Source: a virus (Duplodnaviria > Caudoviricetes). Taken from it: DNA of 30,002 nucleotides. The stretch lies in IMG/VR virus record IMGVR_UViG_3300032278_000081, positions 1 to 30,002 of that record; one strand, 5' to 3'. A program made the position numbers and the translations under genes. Shown piece by piece: positions 413 through 28,246 of the stretch. Below the pieces are notes generated by a model that saw only the letters and a program-made list of their open reading frames with translations, was not told where the DNA came from and did no database searches. Position 1 is the stretch's first letter. Every line of letters begins with the position of its first letter.

Positions 413-567
413 AAACCCCCAGAAACATTGGGGGTTTTTTATTATCTGAAAAAAAGTGAGAAATAATTGTTTTATCCCCTTGTTTTTTTCCGCTAATCAT
501 GTATACTTACCTCATCATGTTGATTGATTCAAAAGTTAACCACGCTTCTGAGGGAGACAAACTGATG
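413..567 (+). repeat. Expression cassette copy 1 (hairpin, AT box, promoter, leader ATG, SD)
   Basis: Near-identical to 844-998; hairpin AAACCCCCA..TGGGGGTTTTTT, GAAATAATTGTTTT 460-473, TTGTTT 480-485, TATACT 502-507, ATG 517, GGAG, ATG 565. Confidence 0.9.
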
Positions 568-783
568 GCAAACAAAGGCGATTATTACTACGAAGCTAAT
601 ACTGGTGGCGTAAGCAAGGCAATTGAGAGAATGGGCAACACGAATCAGGTACGCGCGGCTGTTGTTCTTGCGAGACTGCAAGCAAAACTCAAGGCTCTTG
701 TAAAGCAAAAGGAAGAGATTGAAGATGAGATCAGGACGGTCATTGACTGCATCGATGAAGAGATTCAAGATGAGGTTCGGTAA
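565..783 (+). CDS. Small hypothetical protein with predicted coiled coil (72 aa; 88 aa from ATG 517)
   Basis: SD GGGAG upstream, own promoter and terminator; heptad-like C-terminal half. Confidence 0.7.
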   Translation: MANKGDYYYEANTGGVSKAIERMGNTNQVRAAVVLARLQAKLKALVKQKEEIEDEIRTVIDCIDEEIQDEVR

Positions 784-810
784 CGTCCCGCGCCGCTGAT
801 TAGCATCACA

Positions 811-834
811 GGGGGCCATCCGGCCCCCTTTTTT
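811..834 (+). terminator. Rho-independent terminator
   Basis: GGGGGCC-ATCC-GGCCCCC followed by T6; same element at 1161 and 27661. Confidence 0.9.
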
Positions 835-843
835 ATTGCTTGG

Positions 844-998
844 AAACCCCCAGAAACATTGGGGGTTTTTTATTATCTGAAAAAAAGTGAGAAATAATTG
901 TTTTATCTCCTTGTTTTTTTCTCCCAATCATATATACTTACCCTATCATGTTGATGGATTCAAAAGTTAACCACGCTTCTGAGGGGGATAAAACAATG
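844..998 (+). repeat. Expression cassette copy 2
   Basis: Box 891-904, TTGTTT 911-916, TATACT 933-938, ATG 948, ATG 996; direct repeat of 413-567. Confidence 0.9.
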
Positions 999-1130
999 AC
1001 TACGATGACCGCAAAAGAAAAGGCCTTGTTTCTCACAATTCTCAAGAGCGGCTACTACGGTGGGGTCAAGCTCACTGAATCCCAGCGGCACATCCTTCAA
1101 GCGTGCTTGAGGGGTGAGCCTTTACCCTAA
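996..1130 (+). CDS. Small hypothetical protein (44 aa; 60 aa from ATG 948)
   Basis: SD-like GAGGGGG upstream; flanked by cassette promoter and terminator. Confidence 0.65.
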   Translation: MTTMTAKEKALFLTILKSGYYGGVKLTESQRHILQACLRGEPLP

Positions 1131-1160
1131 CTCCTAACGTGAGAGGGACGTGCATCACAG

Positions 1161-1186
1161 GGGGGGCCATCCGGCCCCCCTTTTTT
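1161..1186 (+). terminator. Rho-independent terminator
   Basis: GGGGGGCC-ATCC-GGCCCCCC followed by T6. Confidence 0.9.
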
Positions 1187-1327
1187 ATGCGTGGCCGCGA
1201 ATGGCCGCAGAATAATCAAACCCCGATCTATCTATCTCACACAAATGTCTCTTCCCCGATCAAGAACTGAAAATACGCGGCCATGCGTGACCACTTGGGT
1301 GCCTCCCAGTGGTTATCAATTAAATTA

Positions 1328-1375
1328 AAAATATTTGTTTAGGGAGCTTGACAGGTTTCTAAAACACTGTATACT
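1328..1375 (+). promoter_or_regulatory. Sigma70-type promoter of the cassette family with no substantial ORF downstream
   Basis: AAAATATTTGTTTA box, TTGACA 1348-1353, 16 nt, TATACT 1370-1375. Confidence 0.75.
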
Positions 1376-1427
1376 TGTTATCGGTGGGGAAGAATGTTTT
1401 TTTAATACACGAAAAACTGAAAAAAAT

Positions 1428-1775
1428 TTATGTATACGGCACCGCGAAGCCGTGAGTGATCAAGGCGTCATTCAGGTTCAGATCATCAGCCCAGACCGTA
1501 ATCAGCCACCGACCGTATTTGCCTTGCTGTGCGGCTGTCTCAGGCCGCGTTTCGATCAGGACGGTCTGAGCCTCATCCATCCTCGTGCGGAGCCAGTCAC
1601 GGGCTTCTAAGCCCTGCTGACGGGTTGATCCGCGAAGCTCTGGGGTGTTAATCCCGAAGAGCCGCCCCGTGATGGTGATCGTAATCCCGAAGCCCAGATC
1701 AAGCGTGAGATCCATGACTGAATCCCCGTCATACACGCGCCACGACCGCGCTGGAAATGTCCAGCTATGGGACAC
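1428..1775 (-). CDS. Thermonuclease (SNase-like) family protein
   Basis: RVYDGDS, LDLGFG, RLFGINTPE and GKYGRWL motifs. Confidence 0.9.
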   Translation of the reverse strand: MSHSWTFPARSWRVYDGDSVMDLTLDLGFGITITITGRLFGINTPELRGSTRQQGLEARDWLRTRMDEAQTVLIETRPETAAQQGKYGRWLITVWADDLNLNDALITHGFAVPYT

Positions 1776-1969
1776 TAGCGATCCATCGTACGGACGGCTC
1801 CGTAAGCTCTGCCGCCTCTGGCCTTGCTCATGCCCTTGGATTCATCCCGGCGAGCTTTGAGGCTTTGGCTTTTCTTCCCGCGCCGTGCGCCCAGTGACTC
1901 ATCAAGTCTTGCATTGTAGCCTTGGGATTTCATGCTGATTTTTTTACCGTAGCCAAGTCCTTTAGGCAT
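1775..1969 (-). CDS. Small basic hypothetical phage protein
   Basis: SD AAGGAG; coupled to next gene; K/R/G-rich. Confidence 0.75.
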   Translation of the reverse strand: MPKGLGYGKKISMKSQGYNARLDESLGARRGKKSQSLKARRDESKGMSKARGGRAYGAVRTMDR

Positions 1970-1972
1970 GTC

Positions 1973-2110
1973 TTATCTCCTTGTTTTTTTCTTCTTTTTC
2001 GCGGTGCTATAGGCAATCGCTAGAGCTTGTTTCGCGGGGTAGCCTTCGCCCTTTAATTTCTTAATATTACTTTGTATCGTCGCTTTCCCGCGTCCTTTTT
2101 TTAGCGGCAT
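1973..2110 (-). CDS. Small basic protein, 45 aa (MPLKKG...KQALAIAYS type), not in ORF track
   Basis: Manual translation MPLKKGRGKATIQSNIKKLKGEGYPAKQALAIAYSTAKKKKKTRR; start abuts the endolysin stop; resembles a recurrent phage small-protein pattern. Confidence 0.8.
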   Translation of the reverse strand: MPLKKGRGKATIQSNIKKLKGEGYPAKQALAIAYSTAKKKKKTRR

Positions 2111-2529
2111 TATACGTCCCGCATCGCGGTGCCCGCGCTCTGTTTATTCCACGCAATCAAGCGGGTGTGCGGGCGCAGATCCCAATGCACGCCCCACGTA
2201 TAGAGGCCGATCCCCCCGATGCGATCATCAGCTTTGGCAAACGCTTTAGCTCCCTCGATAAAATCATAGAGGAACATTTTTACTGGAGGATGACAATCGA
2301 GGGCGCGTCCGTGGACGTGCTGCGAGTGGGGCACCCCGCCGATGCGCTTATTGTGTTCTGGAGTCCGGTAGGCCGAGGCAATCATGATGGGTTCCCCGCC
2401 CAGTGCCGCACGGAAATCTTCAAATACTTCAGCGAGGTGCACGGCCCGATCATGCCATGCCGCAGGATACGGCGTGCCATCCTTGCACGCGAGTTCTTCC
2501 CATGAGAGATGCTTACTCAGATTCGACAT
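2110..2529 (-). CDS. Peptidase M15A family endolysin
   Basis: SAYRTPEHN..IGG..SQH..GRALD and VHWD zinc-ligand motifs; next to membrane genes. Confidence 0.9.
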   Translation of the reverse strand: MSNLSKHLSWEELACKDGTPYPAAWHDRAVHLAEVFEDFRAALGGEPIMIASAYRTPEHNKRIGGVPHSQHVHGRALDCHPPVKMFLYDFIEGAKAFAKADDRIGGIGLYTWGVHWDLRPHTRLIAWNKQSAGTAMRDV

Positions 2530-2788
2530 TGGGCTGCTTACTGGCTACGATGTTTTCGAGCGCGACGAAGGCTTGCATACAGGCTCTCACGGCCCGGTTT
2601 ACATCCTCGTCATTCAAGAGGTCTTTATCCACACCCGCTTCAATCGTCTGCAAAATTGCGTGCGTCATTGCGACGGCAGCATTTTCCTTTTCTACGCCCC
2701 GCTTCGGCCCCTTTAAAAATCCTTCCACGGCCTGTACACAAGACAAAATAAAGGGTAACAGTTTCAAAGATACGTTTAACCATTTCAT
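2513..2788 (-). CDS. Hypothetical protein in lysis region
   Basis: SD AGGAG; hydrophobic N-terminus; overlaps endolysin start. Confidence 0.7.
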   Translation of the reverse strand: MKWLNVSLKLLPFILSCVQAVEGFLKGPKRGVEKENAAVAMTHAILQTIEAGVDKDLLNDEDVNRAVRACMQAFVALENIVASKQPNVESE

Positions 2789-2791
2789 CGT

Positions 2792-3094
2792 TCATTCTCC
2801 TTTCACACTTGTTGAAAATTTCCGCGTAATAAATGTGACCACCGCAATCACCGTCGTGACGGTAATTCCCACTTGTTCCGCTGTCAGGTCAAGGCCAAAC
2901 GCGGCAAAGAGTGCCACAGCTACCGAGATCATCCCGCCGTACGCTACTGGTTCATCTTTTGGTTTTTTGATCATGCGTTGCACCGCCTTCACCACACGCT
3001 GCCGTTTGGAGGCATCCGTGACCGTGGCCCGCGTTAAAATATCATCCACAGCTTGCCCCATGACCCACGCCGTGAGCTTCGATCTAAACCCCAC
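2792..3094 (-). CDS. Holin-like membrane protein
   Basis: Two C-terminal hydrophobic segments, basic tail, lysis context. Confidence 0.6.
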   Translation of the reverse strand: MGFRSKLTAWVMGQAVDDILTRATVTDASKRQRVVKAVQRMIKKPKDEPVAYGGMISVAVALFAAFGLDLTAEQVGITVTTVIAVVTFITRKFSTSVKGE

Positions 3095-3269
3095 GGCGCA
3101 GCCATTCGTTCAGTAAGCTGACGAGAGCCACGCCGCCCACCACGCCCGCTTCCCCGTCAAGTTGCGCGTCCCAACTGGTCGCCGTGATGAGTTGTAAGCC
3201 GAGCAGCGTCCCGCAAATAATCGACGTTCTGAGAATACTGACCCACCACGGATGATCGTGCTTTCCCAT
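3084..3269 (-). CDS. Small two-TM membrane protein (holin candidate)
   Basis: Two hydrophobic segments; coupled to neighbours. Confidence 0.6.
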   Translation of the reverse strand: MGKHDHPWWVSILRTSIICGTLLGLQLITATSWDAQLDGEAGVVGGVALVSLLNEWLRRGV

Positions 3270-3511
3270 TAGTTTCTAAATACCGAATAGAGTGCACCTA
3301 TCACCGTGGAGATTACCGCCCCCACTGCACTTCCCCATTTGACCGCAATACTTTTTGCAGCGGCCAGTTCTCGATCTGACCGATCATTGATGATCGCTAC
3401 CTGCAACTTGAGGGCCGATATATCACTATGAAGTTGATCGAGTTTTTCCCCATGCTCGTGCATTTTTGACAATACTAACTTTTCCATTTCCTTCCACTCG
3501 CCGTTAGCCAC
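3269..3511 (-). CDS. Coiled-coil protein with C-terminal TM helix (XhlA-like architecture)
   Basis: Heptad pattern followed by WGSAVGAVISTVIGALYSVF. Confidence 0.6.
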   Translation of the reverse strand: MANGEWKEMEKLVLSKMHEHGEKLDQLHSDISALKLQVAIINDRSDRELAAAKSIAVKWGSAVGAVISTVIGALYSVFRN

Positions 3512-4667
3512 GACTCACCCCAGAACTCAGATCAAATTCGGCTCCGTGTTCTAATAACACTTTGCCACGTTTCTTAGCTTCTTTCAGTGTACGTGTTGGT
3601 TTCCACTGCTGTCCCTCATAGACAAGAGGCAGCGAATGCTCAAAGACGGCATTGACGTGATCTTCAAGAATATGCCCCTGAGAAGCGTAGCGAGACATTC
3701 GATCCCCATTACTCTTGATAAAACCCGCCGCGCCATCGTAGGTATGCCCCCCTCCCGGTGAAGTCACCTGATCCTCTGGTCGGTTCTTTCCACCCGTGGG
3801 AGTTCTAAAACCAGTTTGAAGTCCTGAGATTATCGTACCGCCCACGTCACGGAAATCATCCACGGGAATCTCAGTTAATCCGCGTTCATGTTCTGCGAGA
3901 GGTAAACGCGGTGCCCCTCGCCGCATCGCCTTAAACATCCCGTTGCGTTCGGGCATGTGGGAGCCATTGTAGATTTCCCCAAGCTCACGAAACGGAAGTG
4001 CGATGTGACACGCATCCCGTACCAATTCGCAAATCGCTTCTAAATACTCAAGTAGGCGATCATGCTTGCGGCCTAATTTTTGGATAAAAAATTCCTGAGA
4101 CATACAAAACGCAATCGGCGCGAAATCTGCGGCTATCACCTGATCAAAAACGGCTTGCACTTTGTTTGTATTTTTTAATCCATCAAACGGCTTTTCAAAA
4201 ACATCGGGGCGCGTGCCTGTGCAGACCGCGATGAAAATATGGGTGCTGTCTTTCACATCTGGGTGAGTAAGATAGGCGTGGATTTTTTCCGGTGTCCACA
4301 CCATAAGGCGATGGCTGGCAATCCATGTGGCTTCATCGCCGGGATACAGCCACGCATGTCTCGCTTTACGCCAATCGTGCCGTAACCCGTTTCCCGTGCC
4401 AATCGGCGGCGGTGCTGGTGTGTGGTGCTTTTCTTTCAGCCAGTCCCGATATTCAGCGAGTGAGTGACACTTCATAGACTCGCCATACAGAACTGCCCCG
4501 CCCATCACCCACTTGGCCTCACCGATCAGGTTGTCTGAGGGTTCAACGCCCACCACTTCTCGATAGATGCGCCGGATGTCTTCGGACTCTTTTCCGCACA
4601 GCGATTTCCACGTGCCTTCTTCGCCCTCTGGCAAATTGATTCCGGTGAACCGTTGGTGGTTATTCAT
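3504..4667 (-). CDS. Hypothetical protein, 387 aa, two-domain
   Basis: Long co-oriented ORF with PAPPP linker near residue 85; no family recognised. Confidence 0.75.
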   Translation of the reverse strand: MNNHQRFTGINLPEGEEGTWKSLCGKESEDIRRIYREVVGVEPSDNLIGEAKWVMGGAVLYGESMKCHSLAEYRDWLKEKHHTPAPPPIGTGNGLRHDWRKARHAWLYPGDEATWIASHRLMVWTPEKIHAYLTHPDVKDSTHIFIAVCTGTRPDVFEKPFDGLKNTNKVQAVFDQVIAADFAPIAFCMSQEFFIQKLGRKHDRLLEYLEAICELVRDACHIALPFRELGEIYNGSHMPERNGMFKAMRRGAPRLPLAEHERGLTEIPVDDFRDVGGTIISGLQTGFRTPTGGKNRPEDQVTSPGGGHTYDGAAGFIKSNGDRMSRYASQGHILEDHVNAVFEHSLPLVYEGQQWKPTRTLKEAKKRGKVLLEHGAEFDLSSGVSRG

Positions 4668-4669
4668 GA

Positions 4670-5029
4670 TTATAACTTTGCCTTGATACTGTCTATGACT
4701 TGGGCTTCTACATCTTCACCAGCCACACTGGAGAGAACTTCTACAATAGCTTGTGCGACTCGCCTGTCAGCCAGCATTGTGGTTGCAATACTTGTCAAAT
4801 ATACTTCGTTCGCCGCTTCCGCATCTGCGTCAGATACGGCGTTAATTTCTGCGGTGGTTGGTTCGTCACCATAACTGACATCGGGCGGCGTCCATGCTGC
4901 GATGAATGGGTCATCGCCCATTCCATCATCTTGCAATTCGTACACGCACGTCCCATCAGCCGCGTGATAATGCGGATCACAACCACGTCCGGTGATTACT
5001 GCGTCAAGTCTATTTTTGAAGTTCGGCAT
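4670..5029 (-). CDS. XkdW-like tail fibre assembly protein
   Basis: YELQDDG..PFIAAW..EPT pattern; directly follows the fibre gene. Confidence 0.6.
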   Translation of the reverse strand: MPNFKNRLDAVITGRGCDPHYHAADGTCVYELQDDGMGDDPFIAAWTPPDVSYGDEPTTAEINAVSDADAEAANEVYLTSIATTMLADRRVAQAIVEVLSSVAGEDVEAQVIDSIKAKL

Positions 5030-5031
5030 CG

Positions 5032-6009
5032 TTACTGTCCAATGTAATCAATTGAAAAATAGGTGTCTGCCAACCCCGCGACGAGTTCGGTGTCGCTCCC
5101 ACGATTATGTTGTGAGAACACTTGCACGTATTGATCAGTGTCCACTTGGAGCGTTACGCCAACTGGGAGGTTCCCGCCGTACATATTCTGAAAGCGGTTA
5201 ATTCGGGTGGACACATTACTGATTCTGATCTGTGTCATGCACGACGAATCGTTTGGGCCGTCGATATAGGCTGCGGCAGATATTTGGTAATAGCCATATC
5301 GTGGCACGGTAAACTCGAAGTTGCCAGCGTTGTTCCAGCCGCCGAACGTATCGTAGACCTCAGTATCGTAATTGACGCGCCGATACGCACCACTGGCGAC
5401 CGTTTGATTCGCGTTCAATCGCACCAAACCGTGAATACTCTGATGATCGCTTGTCACGTACCAGTTTGCCCCGTCGTTTATTAACGTGCAATGGTCGGCG
5501 AGGGCGAACAATTCAAATCCCGTGGTTTGTCCCGGCGCGTTCGTGATCGTTTCCGATCCGTCTGGTGTCACCGTGACCTTGTGGTTGTCATCGGTTTCCT
5601 TGAGAACCGTTACCCGATTGCCGACTGTCGATGCGCTGCTGGCGTAGAGAGTGATCGCAAACGCCGCCGCGCCAGCCGTCATGTGGCATTTAATCACGAC
5701 ATCATCCCCGTCTGACGTGAGGACGGTATACGCTGCGGTTTTCTGTAGCACATTCGCGGCCAATGAGACTTCAGCCCACGCGGGTGCGCTGCCTGTGCCA
5801 TTCGTCTGGAGAAAATATCCCGATGTGCCGCCCCCAAGTCGTGCAAGTTGCGTGCTGCTGCTTGCGTAAAGCACGTCGTTCGCGGCTTGGCTTGCTATCG
5901 CAATCCCGCCAGCGCGTAAAGCGGCATCGTTATCACTAACAAACGTATTCATATCGCTTGCCAAGACCTTATAGCCAGTGGCCCAACTTTTCGGACTGCT
6001 CCACGCCAT
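5032..6009 (-). CDS. Tail fibre / receptor-binding protein with C1q-like C-terminal domain
   Basis: Fibre-type segment LARLGGGTSGYFLQTNGTGSAPAW; C-terminal VNYDTEVYD..FTVPRYGYYQIS pattern. Confidence 0.75.
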   Translation of the reverse strand: MAWSSPKSWATGYKVLASDMNTFVSDNDAALRAGGIAIASQAANDVLYASSSTQLARLGGGTSGYFLQTNGTGSAPAWAEVSLAANVLQKTAAYTVLTSDGDDVVIKCHMTAGAAAFAITLYASSASTVGNRVTVLKETDDNHKVTVTPDGSETITNAPGQTTGFELFALADHCTLINDGANWYVTSDHQSIHGLVRLNANQTVASGAYRRVNYDTEVYDTFGGWNNAGNFEFTVPRYGYYQISAAAYIDGPNDSSCMTQIRISNVSTRINRFQNMYGGNLPVGVTLQVDTDQYVQVFSQHNRGSDTELVAGLADTYFSIDYIGQ

Positions 6010-6027
6010 CGCTGTAACTCCTTCTAA

Positions 6028-7764: not shown

Positions 7765-7765
7765 A

Positions 7766-18509: not shown

Positions 18510-18579
18510 AAAAAAAATGCTCCTTTACTGTAAGGAATTTTGTAAGAATTGACAAGGAAAGTTTCATACACGCGGCTAA

Positions 18580-18810: not shown

Positions 18811-18832
18811 AAAAAACTCCTTTAATCTTACT

Positions 18833-18860: not shown

Positions 18861-18875
18861 GCCTTTAGATAACTA

Positions 18876-19076
18876 TCAATCTACTTGGTTTATTTTCGCT
18901 GCAATTTTAGCCGCGAAATCATAAGCGACAGTATCAAGAGATTCACCCTTCTTAATACGCTGACGGGCCGCTTTAAGCTCTGCCTGTGACAAATCGCGCC
19001 GGATAAGCCTGACCCCATCAGCGGGCTGTACCCAGTAGGCTTCTGGGTGCTTGCTTACTCGCTCTTTATCTACCAT
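18876..19076 (-). CDS. Small hypothetical protein coupled to MuF-toxin (candidate immunity protein)
   Basis: ATG overlaps the toxin stop codon (TAATG). Confidence 0.65.
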   Translation of the reverse strand: MVDKERVSKHPEAYWVQPADGVRLIRRDLSQAELKAARQRIKKGESLDTVAYDFAAKIAAKINQVD

Positions 19077-21814
19077 TAGTCCACCATTTCGACTTGTACA
19101 ACAAGTTGCTTCCGCTCATGCACCCCACCACTGGTTCTAAATTCAACTTCTTTGCGTCCTACTATCCTAACCTTTGTTTTATGAGGTAACAAAAACTCTG
19201 ATTCTCCCATAGAGAAACCCCGACTCTGAGCAACGGGTTGAGTATACAGCCCTTTTGTCGGCCTAATCTCCAACACAATATTTTCCGATCCCTTACGATG
19301 AAAAAACTTTTTAGCTGTACTAGGATCAATACTAGAAGATTGAAAACCATCAAGTTGTAGCACCTCACCATCTATTTTTCCCTGTAGTGCTTTCTCATTC
19401 ACACCTCTCCATACTAACTCAGGTGGTGGGGGTTTCGGGGCATTATCTATAGCTTTCTGTATGTGGACGGCTTCATCCGTTAACTGGTTAGGGTTTTTTC
19501 TTAGCTTACTGTTTATCATATTATAATAACTACCAGTGTAAGTTTCTAGTGCTTCCATTTCTTTTACAGATAACTTACTGGCGTAATCCTCATAATGCTT
19601 AAAAACCTGTTTTTGATATTTTTCTCCCATATCCCGTGGGACTTTATCTGATATAGGCCACGGGGTACTATTTTTGATCTGCTCCTTAATGTCTGACGTG
19701 CTTACTTTGGGCGCACCCTCTTTCCAGTCAAAATCATACATATCTACTGGTTTATCTTTATATAGTGATCCCCGACGTTTACCTCCGAGTTTAGATGTAG
19801 TTTTTTTCAATACCTTCATGTTTTCTATTTTTACGCTATAAGACGATGAGTCATGTGTAAATTTCCTCTTCACTACTCGCTCATAAATAAAATCAAATAA
19901 CTTTGGCTGATCACGCGCTAACGCTACGGGGTTTGCAAACATTTCTTGCACCCCCATCGTCAGTACTTCTGTGGCGTCTTGTAACCCATCTTTTCCATTT
20001 ACACGCACTGGCCCCATCATGTCGCGGGTAAATTCTTGTTTCTTTGCTTTCGCGTATTTCCGTGCCATTTTCTCATTGTAGACTTTTCCTGTATAAAGAC
20101 GCTCAAAGTCATCTTCATAGGCTATTTCCCACGGTTTGTAATTTTTGTTACCAGTTACTTTTTTTAAGAACTTTGCTTTTTCTCCAAGCGTCAACGATTC
20201 CCGCCACCGTATAGATTCTGCTAGAAGGTCTGGATTATTAAATTCCACATGGTGTGTTAATTCATGCACAATGGAAGTTTGTCTCCTGCGAGACAAGTCC
20301 CAAAGGTCTACGTTAATGGTGCCATCATCTAAAGACGCAGCCCTAGCACTAGCTCTGCTTTCTACGCCACTAGCTCGAATTTTATATTTAATGTCACGAG
20401 GCACACGCTGCAACCCTACCAACTTCCCGCTTTTATCGTAGGCTTCTTCTAATCGATAAGAAAATAAATCGTCATCTACTAAGCGCCGCCAACGGTTTAC
20501 GGTGCCATTAAAACTTTTCATTTCCGCTTCCGTTAAAGCATCGCGCCAACTTACCATCTGCCCTTTCTTAAATTTAACAATTTCTCGCACTTTCCCTTCA
20601 TCATTCACCCATAAATCTATATCTACATTCTTATTGGGATTAGAGTTATACACAAATCGATCTAAGACATCATCAACAGCGGTCGCTCTATACGCAGATA
20701 ATTCGTTACTGACTTTTGATAAGCCCCCTTTACCTTTTTGCCACTTAGCTGAAAACTTCTTCCATTTTCCCGTCTGACGTTTTGACTGAAAAAGAATCTG
20801 ATTTTTGTTGTAGGATTTGCCTGTAACCTTATCGATCACTTTATTTATTTTTGACCAATCTTTACTAAAAAATAAATCACGCCCCACCGCGTCCATGCCG
20901 TATTCACGCTGCCACTGAGCGTATAACTCGTCCCATTTTTTCCCCTCTGCAACAAGTGCTTGTGATTCTTTTTGTTGTAACTTCCATAGATCGTCCGTCT
21001 TCTTTTCGAGTTCCTTTAATTTCACGTTATACGCCGAATCAGGATCATCCGCATATTTCAGTAGCGCCTTCCGTGCATCTGACCCCTTGAGCAAATCCCC
21101 ATCTGCACTTACCGCCATCCGCGCCATGGTAGACGCGGGCGCACCAGTCGCTTGCACGGCGGGCGGGGGAGCCACCGCGCCGCCCATCCCCGGCACCGGA
21201 GCAATCCCACAGCGACAATTGGGGTGCGCCGTGGGGCGATCTAATGCTCCAAGTGTTTTAGAAATAAATTTTTTGTTAAGAAGAACTTGATCCCCATCAA
21301 GAGCTTGGCAAATATTGCACGCCCCAAAGGGGGTGGTCATCCATTCCTTCTTGGCGTTGTTCCCTAATAAGCCTTGCTTTTGCGCTTGCCCCCATGCGAG
21401 TTCGACGCCCCCCGTGAGACTGTCGATCACTTCCGTGCGGGCAATCGTGATCGCCCGCCGCCGGATCATTTTATTTTTAAGTTTGATCTCCGCTTTCTCT
21501 TTCGCGGCTGTCGAAAGCGTGGGCGAGAGCTTCCGCACGTAGCGTTTCAGCGCCAACGCTTGCGGGCGATTCAGGCCCACGCTCTCGCGGATCTGTTTTG
21601 CCGCCTCACGCGGGGGGATGCCGTCGCGGATCGATTCCGAGATCACACGTTTCAGCGCATTTTTTGTTTCTTTAGTGATCCGGTCAACCTGCTCAGCGGC
21701 GTATCGCTTCGCCACCGCTTGCGCTTCGCGGGATTTCGCGTTGAAACCAAACCGGACTTTACTCTTGGGGGAGTCGGTTGAGGATTCTGGCACCGAGATG
21801 CCCCCCACGGACAA
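19076..21814 (-). CDS. MuF head morphogenesis protein fused to HEXXH metallopeptidase-like and ADP-ribosyltransferase domains (main frame)
   Basis: RAITIARTE, KKEW, CxxC, PTAHPNCRC (MuF); HELTH; YTG..INSKLR, VWRG, FQSSS, ESEFLLP (R-S-ExE ART). The TTG start is doubtful. Confidence 0.85.
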   Translation of the reverse strand: MSVGGISVPESSTDSPKSKVRFGFNAKSREAQAVAKRYAAEQVDRITKETKNALKRVISESIRDGIPPREAAKQIRESVGLNRPQALALKRYVRKLSPTLSTAAKEKAEIKLKNKMIRRRAITIARTEVIDSLTGGVELAWGQAQKQGLLGNNAKKEWMTTPFGACNICQALDGDQVLLNKKFISKTLGALDRPTAHPNCRCGIAPVPGMGGAVAPPPAVQATGAPASTMARMAVSADGDLLKGSDARKALLKYADDPDSAYNVKLKELEKKTDDLWKLQQKESQALVAEGKKWDELYAQWQREYGMDAVGRDLFFSKDWSKINKVIDKVTGKSYNKNQILFQSKRQTGKWKKFSAKWQKGKGGLSKVSNELSAYRATAVDDVLDRFVYNSNPNKNVDIDLWVNDEGKVREIVKFKKGQMVSWRDALTEAEMKSFNGTVNRWRRLVDDDLFSYRLEEAYDKSGKLVGLQRVPRDIKYKIRASGVESRASARAASLDDGTINVDLWDLSRRRQTSIVHELTHHVEFNNPDLLAESIRWRESLTLGEKAKFLKKVTGNKNYKPWEIAYEDDFERLYTGKVYNEKMARKYAKAKKQEFTRDMMGPVRVNGKDGLQDATEVLTMGVQEMFANPVALARDQPKLFDFIYERVVKRKFTHDSSSYSVKIENMKVLKKTTSKLGGKRRGSLYKDKPVDMYDFDWKEGAPKVSTSDIKEQIKNSTPWPISDKVPRDMGEKYQKQVFKHYEDYASKLSVKEMEALETYTGSYYNMINSKLRKNPNQLTDEAVHIQKAIDNAPKPPPPELVWRGVNEKALQGKIDGEVLQLDGFQSSSIDPSTAKKFFHRKGSENIVLEIRPTKGLYTQPVAQSRGFSMGESEFLLPHKTKVRIVGRKEVEFRTSGGVHERKQLVVQVEMVD

Positions 21815-22046: not shown

Positions 22047-23512
22047 GCGTCATCTTCTTCCGTGGTCACATCTTCATCCCCGTCTTTTTCTACCTTGATT
22101 ACTTCTTCCGTGGGCGGCGGCAGTTGTTCCGGCTCCCGGCTAATTTCCTTCTTCTCTTCCACGTCAGTGATCCCGTACCGCGCCCAGCCACCTTCGGTTA
22201 AAATATTCCAAAATGTTTTGTATGAAATCTCCCCGGCTTGAAGTGTTGCGAGTGCGGTTTGAATTTCCTGCGGCTGCGCTTTGACCTGTAAGAAATCCTT
22301 ATTAAGTTCGACACGCACCGGCACCGTGAGCGGCGTAGCTTCCAGCCCGTCCCACCACGCCATGATTTGCAGCACAGCCCCCAACCCCTGCTCCATCGCT
22401 TGGGCCATCGTGCGAAGCGTGGCATGTTCTCCCGCATGGCGGGCTAACACCGCTGTCGCTGTCTCCTGCGCCACCGTAGGCTGCTCTTCCAACAGCTTGG
22501 CCCCCAGTGTTGCCATCTGGTGCTGCTTGGCAAGCAGAGCTTTTTCGAGTGCCCCCATGCCCGCGCCGGTAAACTCCACCATACCCGCCTGTCCATCCTT
22601 CTCCAGAATCCAGACGGTGGACGGCCCGATCTGCAACACCGCCACATCTTCCGCTGCGCCTTTCATGCCGCTCACATACGGCGTTGGCAACGCCACCAAA
22701 TGCAACCCCTGTTCGTGATCGCAACTGTTGCGCCAGTGCGCGAGCGAAATATTCGCCAGATCCAACAGCGGCGGATCTTTGATCTCTGTCGTAATATACG
22801 CGGGGCCGAGAAACGTAAACGGAATAAACGGCAGCGGTTGCCCCCGTCGAAGCGGCGTGACTTCCTCGCCAACTTTTTCCAGTTCCCCCCCATCATCCGG
22901 CGTGCGCCAAATCTGCTGGGTATACCGCAGCGTATCGCCCTCCTGCTGCAAGCGCAGTTCTCGATATTGATCAAGCGTTTTGTAACGGAACGGATCAGCC
23001 TCATCCACCACGCGGGGGCGTTCGTGCAGCACCACCAGCGTCAGGATTTCATCCCCGTTCAGTGTGCGGGTATCCCAGTTCACAATATTTTCTGTGGTGT
23101 AGCTCACGAAGTACGGGCGCTTTTCTAAGTACGGCGAATCGGCCATCTCCACCAAGATCCCATACCGTGCCATCAGCATCACTTCTTCCGTAGCACTCAG
23201 CGCAAACGCTTCCATCGGAATATTGGTGAGCGTCACATCATCCAGCCACGGCACCACGCGGCGGGGCACATCAAAGCGCGGGGTCTTTTGAAAAATGCCG
23301 CCGGTTAAGCCGCTCACCGTACGCCGCACGGCGTTGTAAAAATTCCCGCGATGCAAATACGCTTGCTGCGCGTCGGGCGTGGCGGCTGGGAGTCGGGGGG
23401 TATAGCGTTCCCCCGCATCAATAATTTGATCGCGGCCCCCGTAGGTGTCGCGCATCCGACGCCAGATCACTTTGGTCTTTTCGTAATCATCACGTGGGGT
23501 ATTGACTGGCAT
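22043..23512 (-). CDS. Portal protein (DUF4055 type)
   Basis: YLHRGNFYN, IPFTFLG, PPLLDLANISLAHW and LGAKLL motifs; follows terminase. Confidence 0.9.
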   Translation of the reverse strand: MPVNTPRDDYEKTKVIWRRMRDTYGGRDQIIDAGERYTPRLPAATPDAQQAYLHRGNFYNAVRRTVSGLTGGIFQKTPRFDVPRRVVPWLDDVTLTNIPMEAFALSATEEVMLMARYGILVEMADSPYLEKRPYFVSYTTENIVNWDTRTLNGDEILTLVVLHERPRVVDEADPFRYKTLDQYRELRLQQEGDTLRYTQQIWRTPDDGGELEKVGEEVTPLRRGQPLPFIPFTFLGPAYITTEIKDPPLLDLANISLAHWRNSCDHEQGLHLVALPTPYVSGMKGAAEDVAVLQIGPSTVWILEKDGQAGMVEFTGAGMGALEKALLAKQHQMATLGAKLLEEQPTVAQETATAVLARHAGEHATLRTMAQAMEQGLGAVLQIMAWWDGLEATPLTVPVRVELNKDFLQVKAQPQEIQTALATLQAGEISYKTFWNILTEGGWARYGITDVEEKKEISREPEQLPPPTEEVIKVEKDGDEDVTTEEDDA

Positions 23513-23515
23513 GGC

Positions 23516-23722
23516 TTACCTCTTTTTCCCAAGGATCTTATTCGCCCGTGCACGGATTTTTTTCCGATCCGCTGCACTCAAGTCTTTGGCTTGTGACAAA
23601 CGTGCGAGCGCATTGCGGGCGTGCGCTTTGTCCGGCATCGGAAACCGATACCGGGTGCCGCCGTTAGTTTTTTGCACAATCGTCGCGGATCGTTTTCGCG
23701 CTTTGGCTTTCAGTTCGGCCAT
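23516..23722 (-). CDS. Small basic protein (DUF6582-like)
   Basis: RFPMPDKAHARNALARLSQ motif. Confidence 0.65.
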   Translation of the reverse strand: MAELKAKARKRSATIVQKTNGGTRYRFPMPDKAHARNALARLSQAKDLSAADRKKIRARANKILGKKR

Positions 23723-23725
23723 CCC

Positions 23726-25180
23726 TTACCCCCAGACCGCTTCCACTACCCGAATTTCGCGGGGCGCACTCCGCAGTTGAAACAGCGCCCCCGCTGCGGC
23801 ATCCAGTTGATCTTTATATTTGCTGCGGCGGTTCGCCACTACTTCATCTAGAAATTCTTTGTTCCAGTGCCCCGCCACGAGCTTCACGCGCCCGTAAGGT
23901 TCATCCTCTGACGCGGGCCGCGCTTGAGAGGCTAACGGTTTCCAGCGCGTGACTTTATCCCCCGTGGCCGTGATGCCGGTGTAGGTATAGCCCGCCAGCA
24001 GATGCCGATGCGCGGCAATCACCGCTTTCCCCGCACTGCCGGGTTCTTGCTCTTCCGCAATATCCACGGTGGGGCCGTCAAGCTGCGCGGTCTGCCGCAT
24101 CAAGGCATCGACTTTGGCCGCAACCAATCGATCCCGCTGCACATCTTCAATAAAAAAATTCCCGCTGCGCGTTTCGCTCATCAACACGCCCGCCGTGTAC
24201 GGACTGCGTTCGGTTTCACTCCCCGCTGCATCCCAGAAACGCACACGGGTCACGACATCCGTGGGAGGGCGATCCACAATCTCAAACCACGCCCGTTCAA
24301 ACATCCCGCCCTTTTCAGGCATCGGATTTTGCGCGTGTTGGCAACTATAGTCTATTGGTCCTAACTCGTGTTTAATAACTTGATTTTCTTCCACCCCGAT
24401 CCGCTCTGGGTTCAGCAGTTCCCCCACCTCATGGCGCGGATCATGCCAGCCGAGCGGAGACACCCACGGCGTCGGGACATACTCCGTGGGCAGTTTGAGA
24501 ATAGTCCAATCCCCTTGCTCTAAGAGCGCGTGGGTTAAATCATCTTCATGCCCGCGCTGCATGATCACAATCTGCCGATCAAATTTTTTGTTGTTGATCC
24601 GAGAAGACCACACTTTGAAAAACCACCGCACGTCTTCCGTGCGGATAATATCCGAGTGGATCGTTTTGAGGTTATGTGGATCATCCACGATCAGAATATC
24701 GCCGCCCTTCCCCGTCGCACTGCCACCCACGGACGTAGAGATCCGATACCCCGCCATGGTGTTAGCATAAAACCCTTTATTGTTTTGATCGCCGCTCAGC
24801 GTCACGTCCCACCGGGTCTGATACCACGGGCTTTCAATCACGCGCCGTGCGGTGGTGGCAAACTCTAGACTCAGATCGCTGCTGTAGCTGGAAAAGAGAT
24901 ACCGGGTCTGGGGTTGCCGCGTCCAGCCCCACGTCGGGAGCGCCACCGAAGTACAGATCGATTTCCCAGAGCGCGGGCAGACGTTGATGATCAGCTTTTT
25001 AATCTCGCCAGTAAATACCGCTTGCTCATGCTCACAGATCGCCCCCAAATGGAAGCCGTCGATGAAAGGCGTGGCGGGTTCGATCACCGGCCACATCGCG
25101 CCGAGATAATCGTGGAGAGATCGCTTGCCCAGTTCCGCTTCCAAAGCGATGAGTTCCGCTATCGCTTCATGATCCACCAT
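23726..25180 (-). CDS. terL: Terminase large subunit
   Basis: Walker A IINVCPRSGKS, Walker B ILIVDDPH, nuclease motifs RFWDAAG and DQLDA. Confidence 0.95.
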   Translation of the reverse strand: MVDHEAIAELIALEAELGKRSLHDYLGAMWPVIEPATPFIDGFHLGAICEHEQAVFTGEIKKLIINVCPRSGKSICTSVALPTWGWTRQPQTRYLFSSYSSDLSLEFATTARRVIESPWYQTRWDVTLSGDQNNKGFYANTMAGYRISTSVGGSATGKGGDILIVDDPHNLKTIHSDIIRTEDVRWFFKVWSSRINNKKFDRQIVIMQRGHEDDLTHALLEQGDWTILKLPTEYVPTPWVSPLGWHDPRHEVGELLNPERIGVEENQVIKHELGPIDYSCQHAQNPMPEKGGMFERAWFEIVDRPPTDVVTRVRFWDAAGSETERSPYTAGVLMSETRSGNFFIEDVQRDRLVAAKVDALMRQTAQLDGPTVDIAEEQEPGSAGKAVIAAHRHLLAGYTYTGITATGDKVTRWKPLASQARPASEDEPYGRVKLVAGHWNKEFLDEVVANRRSKYKDQLDAAAGALFQLRSAPREIRVVEAVWG

Positions 25181-25210
25181 CGTGGAGCATTGTAAAACAA
25201 AACAGGGGGT

Positions 25211-25570
25211 CTACTCCTCACAAAACCATTCGCTGTTAATCCATTCCCATGACCACCGATTGTTGTGGTCAGCGTCACACCGTTCATTGGCTGCTGCCAT
25301 GGCTGCAAAGCGAGATTTGTACTGCCCGCGATGGGGGGTTTCGTTGAGTGGCTCAAGTTCACTTACATGGTCAATAAATTCACACCGTATTTCTTTGTAA
25401 CAGTCAATTTCCCATGCTGTTTTTAGTGCGTTCTGCGATACGCGGATAAGGTCTACGTCAGTCCTTACGGGATGCCCAACATTCTCCGCCACAACTTCGC
25501 GGGCGTTCGTGGCTTCCATGAACATGCGCCCGTCCATGAATCGTTTCAGTTTGAAATTCAAAGTTGCCAT
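25211..25570 (-). CDS. Hypothetical cassette gene (119 aa; 132 aa from ATG 25609)
   Basis: SD GGGAG before ATG 25570; driven by inverted cassette copy. Confidence 0.7.
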   Translation of the reverse strand: MATLNFKLKRFMDGRMFMEATNAREVVAENVGHPVRTDVDLIRVSQNALKTAWEIDCYKEIRCEFIDHVSELEPLNETPHRGQYKSRFAAMAAANERCDADHNNRWSWEWINSEWFCEE

Positions 25571-25711
25571 CTCGTTGTCTCCCGCTGCGTTTGTTTGATT
25601 CATCAACATTTGAGATAAGTATACACTATTGAGAGAACCTGTCCAGCCCTAAGACAGTTATTTTTCACTTTTTTTCAGATAATAAAAAAACCCTCCATGT
25701 TTACAGGGGTT
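25568..25711 (-). repeat. Expression cassette, inverted copy
   Basis: Shares TTTTTTATTATCTGAAAAAAAGTGA with copies 1 and 2; TGGACA 25645-25640, 16 nt, TATACT 25623-25618, ATGTTGATG at 25609. Confidence 0.85.
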
Positions 25712-25725
25712 ATTGAGTAAAAGTA

Positions 25726-25806
25726 CGGCTACGACGGCTACCCTGCGGGTTTTCTCTCACAAGGCAGCGTTGAGCCTCAAAACCTGCAACTTACCCGTCG
25801 TAGCCG
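25726..25806. other. Extended imperfect hairpin between divergent promoters
   Basis: CGGCTACGACGG / CCGTCGTAGCCG outer stem; TGCGGGTTTT / AAAACCTGCA inner stem. Confidence 0.7.
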
Positions 25807-25814
25807 CACAGGTT

Positions 25815-25870
25815 AAAATAATTGTTTTGAGGGCTTGACAGTTTCTAGTCTAACCCTATAGAATTAGTTT
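25815..25870 (+). promoter_or_regulatory. Cassette-family promoter giving a leaderless transcript
   Basis: AAAATAATTGTTTT, TTGACA 25835-25840, 18 nt, TAGAAT 25859-25864, ATG 6 nt later, no SD. Confidence 0.75.
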
Positions 25871-26365
25871 ATGCTTACTGAGAAAGACATTCCAACCGTT
25901 GAAGGCGTTGAGCCAAGAACAGGCAAAAAGCTAGATTACACTTGGGAAGTCAGTGGACTCTACACGCTTCCTCACGATGGCTTTATTGGTAGCCCACGTA
26001 AGGGAATTGAGGTTAAAGCGGGTGATCTTTTTGTCGAGTTCTGGCGCGTGGATGAGGAGTATGAATCAGGCGCACGGGAAGGCTTCATTAAAAGCGTGGA
26101 GCATCGCTATGTGCATGTGCCGACTGGCACCGCGTGTGATCAAGTCAACACAAACTTCCGCATGGCGCGGGATTCGTGGGTAGACAAACGTGGCGAGAAA
26201 CAGTCAATAGAGTGGGAAAAATGCGATCAAATTTTCAATCTTTGTTGTGAGGAAAAAAGGATGTACAAAAAGCGGATGCCGAAGCAGCACAAAGTAGAGT
26301 GCGAGTGTGGATGTGAATGCGCGGTTGATAATTGTGATGAGGCTTTTGGCCGACATGAAGCATAG
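25871..26365 (+). CDS. Hypothetical protein with Cys-rich C-terminus
   Basis: 164-aa ORF directly after promoter; CECGCECAVDNC tail. Confidence 0.7.
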   Translation: MLTEKDIPTVEGVEPRTGKKLDYTWEVSGLYTLPHDGFIGSPRKGIEVKAGDLFVEFWRVDEEYESGAREGFIKSVEHRYVHVPTGTACDQVNTNFRMARDSWVDKRGEKQSIEWEKCDQIFNLCCEEKRMYKKRMPKQHKVECECGCECAVDNCDEAFGRHEA

Positions 26366-26394
26366 TTGATACTTTTAACAGGAGAGACAGAGAC

Positions 26395-26679
26395 ATGACC
26401 GCTAACCTGAATACAGAGATGTTGACGATGAAGGCCACCACCGGCCTCTTAGCGTTGGATAAAACTTTTATCGGCACCGAGGACTATATGGGCATGGCGT
26501 ATTTCTGGCATTACGAGTATCGCCACTATCTGCGCCCCATGAGCTATGCCGTGAATCGCCGCGTGCATCGCGCACTTCTCGCCGCTGGGCTTGAAGTCAA
26601 CGAAGCCAGCCCCGCGCATGAGGCGATCATCCTGACAACCTTTGACCGCCGCCGCGTGTATGGCCGAGCTTCCGCATAG
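26395..26679 (+). CDS. Hypothetical protein
   Basis: SD-containing GGAGAGACAGAGAC directly upstream. Confidence 0.7.
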   Translation: MTANLNTEMLTMKATTGLLALDKTFIGTEDYMGMAYFWHYEYRHYLRPMSYAVNRRVHRALLAAGLEVNEASPAHEAIILTTFDRRRVYGRASA

Positions 26680-26694
26680 GATTAGAAACAGCCG

Positions 26695-26907
26695 ATGCCC
26701 TTCCCCCACAAGAAGCAACCCGCACGGAAGGAAAAATTTACCGGGAATCTGGGATCAACCCGTCTGATTTATCAGGCGGGAGCCGCCGCCCGCAAGAACG
26801 GTGATCCCATCTGGGTCAATCCCCTGCTGGGAGAACACGCCCGCGTCTGGGCCAACGGCTGGCGCGGCGTGCCGCATACGAAACCCCCCAAACAAAGTAA
26901 GAAATAA
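26695..26907 (+). CDS. Rmf/CrpP-like small protein (tentative)
   Basis: YQAGAAARKNG...NP...WANGWR matches the G..A...G...P....W..GW pattern of the ribosome modulation factor fold. Confidence 0.5.
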   Translation: MPFPHKKQPARKEKFTGNLGSTRLIYQAGAAARKNGDPIWVNPLLGEHARVWANGWRGVPHTKPPKQSKK

Positions 26908-26991
26908 TTGTTTTAACCTCTTGCTTTTTTCTCTCAATCGTGTAGACTTAGGTTGTTGATACTTACTTACTACATAAGGAGACAGGAAATG
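26901..26991 (+). repeat. Expression cassette, degenerate copy
   Basis: GAAATAATTGTTTT 26901-26914, TTGCTT 26921, TAGACT 26943, TTGTTGATA 26953, AAGGAG, ATG 26989. Confidence 0.8.
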
Positions 26992-27654
26992 CTTACAGAA
27001 GTGCAGTGTGATGTTTTTAAGTCTGTTGTGCAGCCAGTGCACCCCACCGGCACGTTGATGGTGTCGAAATATAAGGGCTGGTGCAAATCGTGTAAATCGC
27101 CAATTGCTGTTGGCTCTGAAATTCTCTGGGCCAAGGGTGAAGGCGCACGCCACGCCACGCAGGAAGCCTGTGACAAAGCCACGGCTGCGAAGGCCGCACC
27201 ACAGGGCCACGCAAATCTTGCCAGCATCATCAGCTTTATCGTGGGCGCACGGGATCGCGGGATCAAATGGCCGAAGCTCCGCGTGTTGGATGCTGATGGC
27301 ACGTCTGAACTGGTGCTAGGGCTGACCGGCGAAAAGAGCAAGGTGCCCGGTTCGGTCACCGTCAAGCGTAACGGGGAGTATGTTGGGCTGGTACGTCCCA
27401 CGGGTGATGTGATTGGCGCATGGGATAACCCCACACGCTTTGATGCCACGCTGATCGCGCACTTGGCACAGGTAGCCGAAGCTCCGGCCATCGCCGCCAA
27501 GGACTACGCGGGCATCACGTCAAACTGTTCTTTCTGCGGCAAGACCCTCACCGACACGGGCAGTGTCGAGGTAGGCTACGGCCCCATCTGTGCAGAGCAT
27601 TGGGGTTTGCCGCACACGCCGAAAGGCACCCCAGCACTGGAGGTTGTTGTATAA
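26989..27654 (+). CDS. DUF6011-like zinc-finger protein
   Basis: C-terminal CSFCGKTLTD..S..GYGPIC motif; N-terminal CKSC...H. Confidence 0.75.
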   Translation: MLTEVQCDVFKSVVQPVHPTGTLMVSKYKGWCKSCKSPIAVGSEILWAKGEGARHATQEACDKATAAKAAPQGHANLASIISFIVGARDRGIKWPKLRVLDADGTSELVLGLTGEKSKVPGSVTVKRNGEYVGLVRPTGDVIGAWDNPTRFDATLIAHLAQVAEAPAIAAKDYAGITSNCSFCGKTLTDTGSVEVGYGPICAEHWGLPHTPKGTPALEVVV

Positions 27655-27660
27655 GTATCA

Positions 27661-27685
27661 GGGGGCCATCCGGCCCCCTTTTTTT
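27661..27685 (+). terminator. Rho-independent terminator
   Basis: Identical stem-loop to 811-828 followed by T7. Confidence 0.9.
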
Positions 27686-27690
27686 GTCTG

Positions 27691-27795
27691 AAAATAATTG
27701 TTTTGCACTCTTGTTTTTTTCTGCCAATACTGTATACTTAGTTCATCATGTTGATGGATTCAGTCAATGCCGACTCGCAAGGAGACAAAAAGATG
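27691..27795 (+). repeat. Expression cassette copy
   Basis: Box 27691-27704, TTGTTT 27711, TATACT 27733, ATGTTGATGGATTCA 27748, AAGGAG, ATG 27793. Confidence 0.9.
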
Positions 27796-28101
27796 ATGTT
27801 ACTTACCAAAGCCAATCGGAACGCCCTCCCCGCGCTGTATGCCACGGATGGAGACAAAGCCGCCAAAGCCGTGGTGAAGTTCTTCACGCCCGATGGCAAC
27901 TTTACGTGGTACGCCAGCGAATTTGACGGCAACGATACTTTTTTCGGTCTGGTTGACGGCGGCGCGTGCAAGGAGCTTGGGTATTTCTCCCTGAGTGAAT
28001 TGACGAACCTGCGCGGTCGGATGGGATTGCCGGTAGAGCGGGATCGCTACTTCTCCCCCACGCCGCTTGCGGAACTGGGATCGAACGTCCACGCCAGCTA
28101 A
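27793..28101 (+). CDS. DUF2958 family protein (102 aa; 117 aa from ATG 27748)
   Basis: VVKFFTP..TWY..E..FFGLV..ELGYFSLSEL..VERDRYF signature. Confidence 0.85.
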   Translation: MMLLTKANRNALPALYATDGDKAAKAVVKFFTPDGNFTWYASEFDGNDTFFGLVDGGACKELGYFSLSELTNLRGRMGLPVERDRYFSPTPLAELGSNVHAS

Positions 28102-28120
28102 GACACGAGCTACACCTAGA

Positions 28121-28142
28121 GGGGGCTTCGGCCCCCTTTTTT
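28121..28142 (+). terminator. Rho-independent terminator
   Basis: GGGGGC-TTCG-GCCCCC followed by T6. Confidence 0.9.
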
Positions 28143-28150
28143 ATTGCCTG

Positions 28151-28246
28151 AAAATAATTGTTTCATCCTCTTGACTTTTTCTGTCAATAGTATAGACTTA
28201 CCTTATCATGTTGATGTCAGACACAAACCGGGGAGACAAAACGATG
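28151..28246 (+). repeat. Expression cassette copy
   Basis: Box 28151-28164, TTGACT 28171, TAGACT 28193, ATGTTGATG 28208, GGAG, ATG 28244. Confidence 0.9.

Follow-up and report, generated by a model that had tools for sequence, protein, structure and literature searches.

A near-5'-end ATG kept in frame with a Shine-Dalgarno-led start in repeated phage gene cassettes: a likely case of two-route translation initiation

PeSL cassettes have been described in the T4-like phages RB49, phi1, PST, and nt-1, where intermodule recombination yields mini-circles and gene exchange (PMC2839356, PMC4122927). In Escherichia coli, 5'-terminal AUGs on mRNAs that carry a Shine-Dalgarno (SD)-led start are translated (PMC4965119); the out-of-frame 5'-terminal upstream AUGs (5'-uAUGs) in that work were chosen deliberately, and cases giving a longer isoform were set aside (Beck, Fleming and Janssen, 2016; PMC4965119). 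Leaderless mRNAs are known from lambda cI and from Acidobacteria (PMC3160421), and rules for them have been worked out in Caulobacter (PMC8459731). Here we describe repeated gene cassettes in a 30,002-nt stretch of tailed-phage DNA (IMG/VR record IMGVR_UViG_3300032278_000081, positions 1 to 30,002; a 30-kb piece with 52% GC, hereafter the window). In these cassettes an ATG near the predicted 5' end of the mRNA stays in the frame of an SD-led ATG 11–17 codons on, and we consider it likely that this arrangement serves initiation by two routes.

The cassettes make up two clusters of small genes in the window, at about 400–1200 and 25200–29000, both of which are built from one repeated module. Its order is a stem-loop, an AT-rich AAATAATT block, CTTG, 19–21 nt, TANNNT, a short leader, an SD, an ATG, and the gene, after which a GC hairpin and a T run often follow. 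The leader part consists of the 5' ATG, an open A/C-rich linker, the SD, and the second ATG, and in the window as well as in its relatives the SD and start codon form the 3' end of the module. The promoters, predicted to be active from their match to the sigma70-like -35/-10 consensus, have the AT-rich block upstream and a spacer of mostly 16–17 nt. A G/C-tract stem-loop precedes five of the six SD-led window cassettes, the one at 26953 having none. The module is repeated before unrelated small genes, with 65 distinct promoter copies in the phage group, and 30 of the 32 cassette genes in relatives have no Pfam family above cut-off. In one relative (L191) the upstream gene and promoter are as at window 26953, yet the leader and gene differ; such a swap of leader and gene behind the same promoter fits exchange at the module.

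The first-pass annotation of the window had drawn attention to ATGTTGAT at 517, 948, 25609 (minus strand), 27748, and 28208, and we found it at each of these positions, 9, 9, 8, 9, and 9 nt, respectively, after TATACT or TAGACT. All five leaders are open and in frame to the SD-led ATG (565, 996, 25570, 27793, and 28244), over distances of 48, 48, 39, 45, and 36 nt. On the plus strand they occupy 517..564 (16 open codons, SD GGAG 553–556), 948..995 (16 open codons, SD GAGGGGGA), 27748..27792 (15 open codons, SD GGAG 27781–27784), and 28208..28243 (12 open codons, SD GGAG 28232–28235); the minus-strand leader occupies 25571..25609 (13 open codons, SD GGAG 25582–25579). A TTG at 26953 had been counted as a further in-frame variant. 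It is actually in frame, 36 nt before 26989, but we do not accept it as a sixth case, because, at 4 nt past the -10 box, it precedes the point where transcription is expected to begin, and because its closest homologue, in L183 (near 1001), is out of frame. This ATG-less leader type serves instead as a control. The chance of the shared frame, put earlier at about (1/3)^4, can be taken as approximate only, since the copies are related, and a count on a tree is the better test.

For that count, relatives were fetched by capsid, terminase, and helicase similarity and with a promoter pattern that required ATGTTGA and was blind to frame; its main form gave 54 distinct matches, 17 of which were dropped before counting as lying outside the phage group. 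L171 and L207, being the window itself, were excluded. The fetched loci were searched with promoter-only models (a weight matrix, then a profile hidden Markov model, HMM), and the copies were classified by fixed rules. One of the 153 HMM matches had no -10 box and was excluded, and the rest reduced to the 65 distinct copies: 45 two-start cassettes (a 5' ATG or GTG plus an open reading frame, ORF, led by an SD), seven with the 5' start only, six with the SD-led start only, two with neither, and five truncated. This recount replaced an earlier one of 40 of 43, adding three cassettes, one of them out of frame, and merging one duplicate.

The two-start cassettes are in frame and stop-free in 41 of 45 cases, with leader lengths of 33, 36, 39, 42, 45, 48, and 51 nt. 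The test suggested earlier, of spacer length modulo 3 and absence of stops in homologous cassettes, thereby supports the observation, but the word "always" used for the frame fails for the group, in which four of the 45 are out of frame. The in-frame cassettes divide into eight of nine in the window together with L183 and L185, and 33 of 36 in the other 18 loci; L183 overlaps window positions 1–127 at 100% and is probably the adjoining part of the window genome or of one nearly identical to it. When the 43 unique leaders are joined in a spanning tree, leader length changes 17 times, 13 times by a multiple of 3 (p=3.4e-4 against one third), and all four frameshifted leaders are terminal leaves. 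Beyond nt 9, stop triplets number 0 in frame as against 5 and 25 in the other two frames. Measured from the -10 box, the position of the SD-led ATG falls on all three residues modulo 3 (14/19/12), which indicates that the frame is tied to the 5' ATG and not to the promoter. Length changes upstream of the ATG were never triplets (0/13), a figure on which we do not rely because promoter geometry limits those changes to 1–2 nt.

The frame is also kept through changes in the leader itself, namely the loss of the TTG codon, a change of ATG to GTG, the replacement of the head by an unrelated one (ATGGATAAC), and the move of the SD to another register in the 51-nt leader, and frame and openness are both kept in three leader types. 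The DUF2958 gene has three different leaders, each in frame, and a 70% homologue of the gene at 28244 has another leader upstream that is in frame too. The coliphage RB49, the type case for PeSL cassettes, was used as a control: 129 of its 164 kb were scanned, giving 77 promoter-like sites, 31 with an SD-led ORF within 80 nt. Only one of these 31 leaders has an ATG or GTG at gap 6–10, whose frame meets a stop. A promoter-only exact pattern gave 12 matches in viral contigs, all AT-rich and unrelated, and a leader pattern with SD gave 64 single matches, none with this promoter family. Judging from these counts, we regard the frame bias as exceeding chance and as a real, conserved feature of the phage group.

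Both codons appear to act as starts. Five ORFs behind the same promoter, the shortest of 82 codons and the longest of at least 197, have an ATG at gap 6–8 and no SD (two more 5'-start cases, with GTG, have short ORFs and were not counted). For the one at window 25871, five of five aligned homologues start at the same Met. For another (L015:938-1183), which has the standard ATGATGTTGAACGCA head and no SD, the first conserved block of the family starts a few residues past that ATG in an alignment of 22 of its 33 homologues. These N-termini suggest that the 5' ATG position is likely a working start in the phage group. The same probably holds for the SD-led start, which is the sole possible start in the four frameshifted and six SD-only copies and immediately precedes the beginning of the DUF2958 and LPD29 profiles. 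Its spacing from the SD is conserved, and the Pfam match of the DUF2958 protein, entering the profile at position 2, begins with the fourth residue of the SD-led form, which places the extension outside the family. Since the two-start cassettes have an SD, they are not plain leaderless genes.

The gap between the -10 box and the 5' ATG in the 45 cassettes is 7 nt in 21 copies, 8 in 11, and 9 in 13. Cassettes with gap 7 would fit a true leaderless start. The window-type 5' ATG, at gap 8–9, is preceded by CAA or ATC, and its AUG is probably 1–3 nt inside the mRNA. In Caulobacter reporters each added 5' base cut leaderless initiation about 2-fold (PMC8459731), so that at such a gap the 5' route is probably minor in the window leader type, while it is probably strong in relatives with ATGATG at gap 7. 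The view of the first-pass annotation that each mRNA can be translated both leaderlessly and by SD initiation accordingly gains indirect support from the frame, the openness, the SD-less genes, and the signal in a candidate host (described below), and from the lack of such traits in the PeSL-type leaders of RB49, with the qualification that the window AUG probably lies slightly inside the mRNA; the stress-proof or broad-host expression that the annotation attached to this view is a conjecture.

Several points weigh against two-route initiation. The window gap of 8–9 exceeds the candidate-host peak of 6–7, and the Caulobacter losses point the same way. The four out-of-frame leaders (35, 37, 38, and 58 nt, one of them on L183) and the six SD-only related promoters indicate that the 5' ATG is dispensable; two of the four, though, close on a TGA that shares bases with the start (ATGA, GTGA), an arrangement that could still hand ribosomes on. 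Several 3-nt indels sit in triplet-periodic tracts, where slippage alone yields threes, and the copies are related and probably homogenized by recombination, so that the counts overstate independence. Because loci were partly fetched with the pattern requiring ATGTTGA, the presence of the ATG is inflated, though its frame is not. The cassette pattern was absent from the one candidate host genome and from all 401 genomes of its class, and the candidate host is taken from 50–64% capsid identity only.

Among the other explanations, the one that survives best takes the 5' AUG as a loading or standby site feeding the SD-led start, a role proposed for the 5' AUG of E. coli ptrB, or as a shield of the 5' end, with the long form incidental and scarce. 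Actually, ptrB expression in E. coli needs the 5' AUG but not translation of the upstream ORF (uORF; PMC4965119), the window AUGs probably lie within the mRNA by the 1–3 nt given above, the out-of-frame exceptions persist, and the amino acids of the linker are barely constrained. A loading site from which no elongation follows would need no frame, yet frame and stop avoidance are conserved, and we therefore think this explanation unlikely.

We judge it improbable, too, that the frame is a mutational by-product, in which an in-frame ancestor was multiplied by duplication, gene conversion, and slippage in tracts of the ATGATG or ACAACA type without any translation from the 5' ATG. The close relatedness of the copies, 23 of 45 leaders being 36 nt long, would be expected from such a history, as would the triplet-periodic events seen (loss of the TTG codon, a TCG duplication, and AAC repeats). 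Some net-triplet changes, however, are made of non-triplet gaps or shift the SD register, and single-base slips in A and G runs do occur, only as terminal leaves. In-frame stops are absent, while the ATG-less leader type drifts out of frame; RB49 leaders, which are similarly A/C-rich, take all residues modulo 3 (8/12/11); and the SD-less genes use the same ATG.

A third explanation, which we hold to be quite improbable, is that the 5' ATG is the sole real start, that the extension belongs to the protein, and that the SD block is a recombination site or a relic. It can draw on the SD-less genes behind the same promoter and on L165:664-1003 (+), where an SD-led gene opens with a second copy of the leader peptide, which suggests that the N-terminus of this gene was once a leader; L190 has a similar gene without such an opening. 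The four out-of-frame and six SD-only copies can start only at the SD-led codon, however, and both the kept SD-to-ATG spacing and the two family profiles beginning just after the SD-led Met speak against it.

The 11–17-residue extension was also proposed, in the first-pass annotation, to be a shared peptide tag analogous to a capsid-targeting sequence, and localization or degradation may be added as functions of such a tag. The composition is consistently polar, and on 24 equal-length tree edges (counted in the earlier 40-leader set) 48 of 102 linker substitutions fall on third codon positions (p=0.003). Synonymous changes, however, number 29 of 102 against 23+/-4 expected under a base-matched null (P=0.083), so that their excess is not significant, and codons with a single change show 43 non-synonymous and 17 synonymous replacements. 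The shared residues of ML(M/I)..N..GD(K/N) trace to DNA: GD(K/N) is the SD GGAGACAA read in frame and ML is the ATGTTG head, while in the 51-nt leaders, where the SD is in another register, the same region reads PKEAT. The heads vary (ML, MM, MD, VL), and the motif is confined to the five window cassettes, none of the window's structural proteins having it. What appears to be under selection is frame and openness, not the peptide, and this weak constraint leaves the tag unsupported and, in our estimation, very improbable. Weakest of all, and hardly credible, is the explanation that the bases flanking the ATG are a repressor operator with the ATG incidental, since the ATCA-N3-TGAT and TTGA-N5-TCAA palindromes over the transcription start, both readable in window-type leaders, are not kept in the ATGATGTTGAAC, ATGATGAAC, and ATGGATAAC types and leave the triplet length changes 10–40 nt downstream unexplained.

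We therefore return to two-route initiation. Host RNA polymerase would start transcription about 6–8 nt past the -10 box. A 70S ribosome would load at the 5'-proximal AUG and elongate through the linker, giving a form with 11–17 extra polar residues, while 30S subunits would initiate at the SD-led AUG and give the family-length form. We propose that the frame is selected because ribosomes from an out-of-frame 5' AUG would make nothing useful and would cross the SD. The linker would be a neutral spacer rather than a signal; being A/C-rich and weakly folded, it would suit both routes, and upstream ribosomes may remove structure at the SD. Translation has been reported to increase when CA repeats follow a start codon (PMC9031893). 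We found no shared structure among the leaders, which fold weakly (0 to -9.8 kcal/mol). The benefit would be high, context-independent early expression of any gene that recombines behind the module.

More tentatively, the module may be a plug-in adaptor that gives both routes to any recombined gene, the 5'-AUG route sustaining early proteins when SD initiation is throttled; throttling might come from starved or stressed marine hosts or from host shut-off. This broader idea is possible but doubtful at present. If true, the module would be nature's equivalent of engineered insulating leaders, and a strategy that recurs among phages. Two-route initiation itself, if true, bears on annotation, there being two N-termini per early phage protein, on the activation of newly captured genes by phages, and on the design of expression leaders for bacteria rich in leaderless mRNAs.

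The window encodes terminase, portal, head-morphogenesis protein, scaffold, capsid, tail, and tape measure, with a holin and an endolysin on the minus strand. With a tape measure and a major tail protein present and no sheath match among the 43 window proteins scanned, its gene content is that of a siphophage and not of a T4-like myovirus. The phage is marine, and the RNA runs linked to the stretch all carry the label marine metagenome. In capsid searches the closest cultured relatives are 42% identical and uncultured ones up to 96%, and the top match in bacterial genomes (63%) is in a Candidatus Marinacidobacterales record (Acidobacteriota, Vicinamibacteria). Capsid matches occur in three of the 401 genomes of this class, the best per genome being 50–64%, and we take Vicinamibacteria as the likely host class, a lead and not an assignment. 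The candidate marine Acidobacteriota genome (G001, reached via L211) has nine terminase matches and two capsid regions ~98% identical to each other; on this evidence we regard it as carrying an unusually large set of related prophages.

In 400 kb of the candidate host, TANNNT lies 6–7 nt before 17 of 307 early in-frame ATGs and before 5 of 888 mid-gene ATGs (Fisher p=5e-7), so the candidate host class seems to show the leaderless signal of a -10 box beside the ATG. Three Acidobacteria genomes have been reported to contain 13.3% leaderless genes on average (PMC3160421). No such cassette was seen in 15 regions flanking the prophages of the candidate host.

The remaining parts of the window modules are as follows. 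Upstream of cassette 1 there is a terminator-like C-tract/G-tract stem-loop with a T run (413..441, +), followed by a predicted promoter (461..507, +) with the AT-rich block, a -35 TTGTTT at 480–485, a 16-nt spacer, and a -10 TATACT at 502–507. The gene begins at the SD-led ATG (565..783, +) and encodes 72 amino acids with no PHROG or Pfam family. A GC hairpin plus T run ends this cassette and a second stem-loop lies ahead of cassette 2 (810..868, +), whose promoter (892..938, +; -10 TATACT 933–938) precedes a gene for 44 amino acids without a family (996..1130, +) and a terminator-like hairpin at ~1159–1187. In cassette 2, a block at 894–915, upstream of the -35, is nearly complementary to the cassette's own SD/start region at 978–999 (duplex -20.6 kcal/mol), and pairing with it on read-through RNA could hide the SD. 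We rejected such pairing as a general rule, because it is strong at 948 only and own and cross pairs differ little (-9.7 vs -9.6).

A same-family promoter, TTGACA-16-TATACT (1329..1375, +), has no convincing gene downstream. Gene-less promoters of the family occur at window 1329–1450 (+) and in L190 near 3948, L017 near 4061, and L167 near 1117; in three of these four a purine-rich stretch and then a T-rich run follow, and the gene-less promoters possibly drive small non-coding RNAs.

In the second cluster, the minus-strand cassette comprises a predicted promoter (25618..25665, -; -35 TGGACA 25645–25640, -10 TATACT 25623–25618), with a stem-loop further upstream, and a gene from the SD-led ATG at 25570 (25211..25570, -; 119 amino acids, DUF7183 match below cut-off). 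Divergent from it is a same-family promoter (25816..25864, +; -10 TAGAAT 25859–25864) serving the SD-less gene at 25871..26365 (+), whose ATG is 6 nt past the -10 box and which is predicted to be leaderless. The two promoters face apart across 25618–25864, the 200-nt gap between them holding a 31-nt imperfect inverted repeat (25723–25809). A TTGATACTT stretch like the 26953 leader (26364–26397, +) precedes the promoter-less second gene of the 25871 operon, out of frame, and is perhaps a decayed cassette.

The ATG-less cassette has a predicted promoter at 26902..26948 (+; -10 TAGACT 26943–26948), the SD-only leader TTGTTGAT (26953..26988, +), in frame here and out of frame in its closest homologue, and a DUF6011 gene for 221 amino acids (26989..27654, +). 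In distant relatives (L134 near 6402, minus strand; L137 near 1870 and 2215, minus strand) a start-stop ATGTAG lies 2–3 nt past the -10 box, ahead of where transcription is expected to start, and there is no in-frame 5' ATG there. A terminator hairpin (27660–27679) and the next predicted promoter, with its -10 TATACT at 27733–27738 (together 27660..27738, +), lead to the DUF2958 gene for 102 amino acids (27793..28101, +). After this come a terminator hairpin (28118–28139) and a predicted promoter with -35 TTGACT 28171–28176 and -10 TAGACT 28193–28198 (together 28118..28198, +), and finally a cassette gene for 134 amino acids without a family (28244..28648, +).

Two further window genes are worth recording. 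A MuF-like head-morphogenesis protein (19076–21814, -) has a C-terminal ADP-ribosyltransferase domain (Pfam PF03496, E 9e-15), which is matched in L135 and L024-L026 and has no match in several other relatives having the MuF part; a link between the domain and the cassettes was rejected, because several cassette-bearing relatives have no domain match. A 70-amino-acid ORF (26695–26907, +) gave a weak Pfam match to ribosome-modulation factor (RMF), has a 95% copy in L191, and overlaps with its 3' end the AT-rich block of the next promoter. We did not build a model of host shut-off on it, because the Pfam match is below cut-off and there is no solved-structure match; sequence search gave only its own cluster.

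As for how the cassettes compare with what has been described, the words "leaderless" and "in frame" do not occur in the available part of PMC2839356, nor "leader" and "in frame" in that of PMC4122927, and the available part of a review of bacterial N-terminal proteoforms has one mention each of leaderless mRNA and phage, neither in a cassette sense (PMC13515050). We found no literature on in-frame 5' AUGs in phage cassettes, subscription papers being mostly outside the search, and supplements too. The targeting sequence of the internal proteins of T4 is a short N-terminal peptide conserved in amino acids; it directs proteins into the head, where the prohead protease removes it. Unlike it, the cassette extensions show mostly non-synonymous changes, their shared residues tracing to the DNA of the head and the SD.

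In the synthetic bicistronic design (BCD), an SD-led first cistron stops on an overlap with the start of the gene. The cassettes resemble it in having a short leader, here predicted to be translated, that holds a second SD and would insulate expression from the sequence of the downstream gene, but their first start is 5'-terminal and mostly in frame, and a stop/start overlap is found in two of 45 copies only. They resemble leaderless mRNAs in the -10 box a few bases before the ATG, and the gene at window 25871 and four related genes look ordinarily leaderless, but the cassettes also keep a full SD-led start, and the gap of the window ATGs is 8–9, not 6–7.

The cassettes also resemble 5'-uAUGs and PeSL cassettes. 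As with the former, an SD-led ORF lies downstream on the same predicted mRNA (45 cassettes here). From the gaps of 7–9, set against the candidate-host peak of 6–7, the AUG would be predicted to lie no more than 3 nt from the 5' end, which would agree with the 5'-uAUG definition (PMC4965119). In E. coli, however, these are scattered single genes with an out-of-frame uORF, whereas here a repeated module, in frame in 41 of 45 copies, precedes dozens of unrelated genes. How leaderless and SD initiation share one mRNA is a question that the E. coli work did not reach, the in-frame class having been put to one side there. With PeSL cassettes the module shares an intergenic stem-loop with G/C tracts, an AT-rich block, sigma70-like -35/-10 boxes, an SD, a start codon, and variable small genes (PMC2839356, PMC4122927), as well as the signs of gene swapping seen in L191. 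It differs in belonging to a siphophage and in opening its leader with an in-frame ATG, which RB49 has in at most one of 31 leaders, its lengths not being tied to frame. Given a phage that is not T4-like and the lack of the 5' ATG in RB49, we consider that the module works like PeSL without classing it as one. Judging from sequence, the feature combines PeSL-like cassettes with 5'-terminal AUGs on SD-led mRNA, two kinds already known. If this is true, one module applies both known bacterial ways of initiation to the same protein, tested by evolution on dozens of unrelated genes, and for studying how the two share one mRNA there is a ready allelic set in its natural variants, some in frame, some coupled by a stop/start overlap, some SD-only, and some leaderless-only, which have 5' gaps of 6–9 nt.

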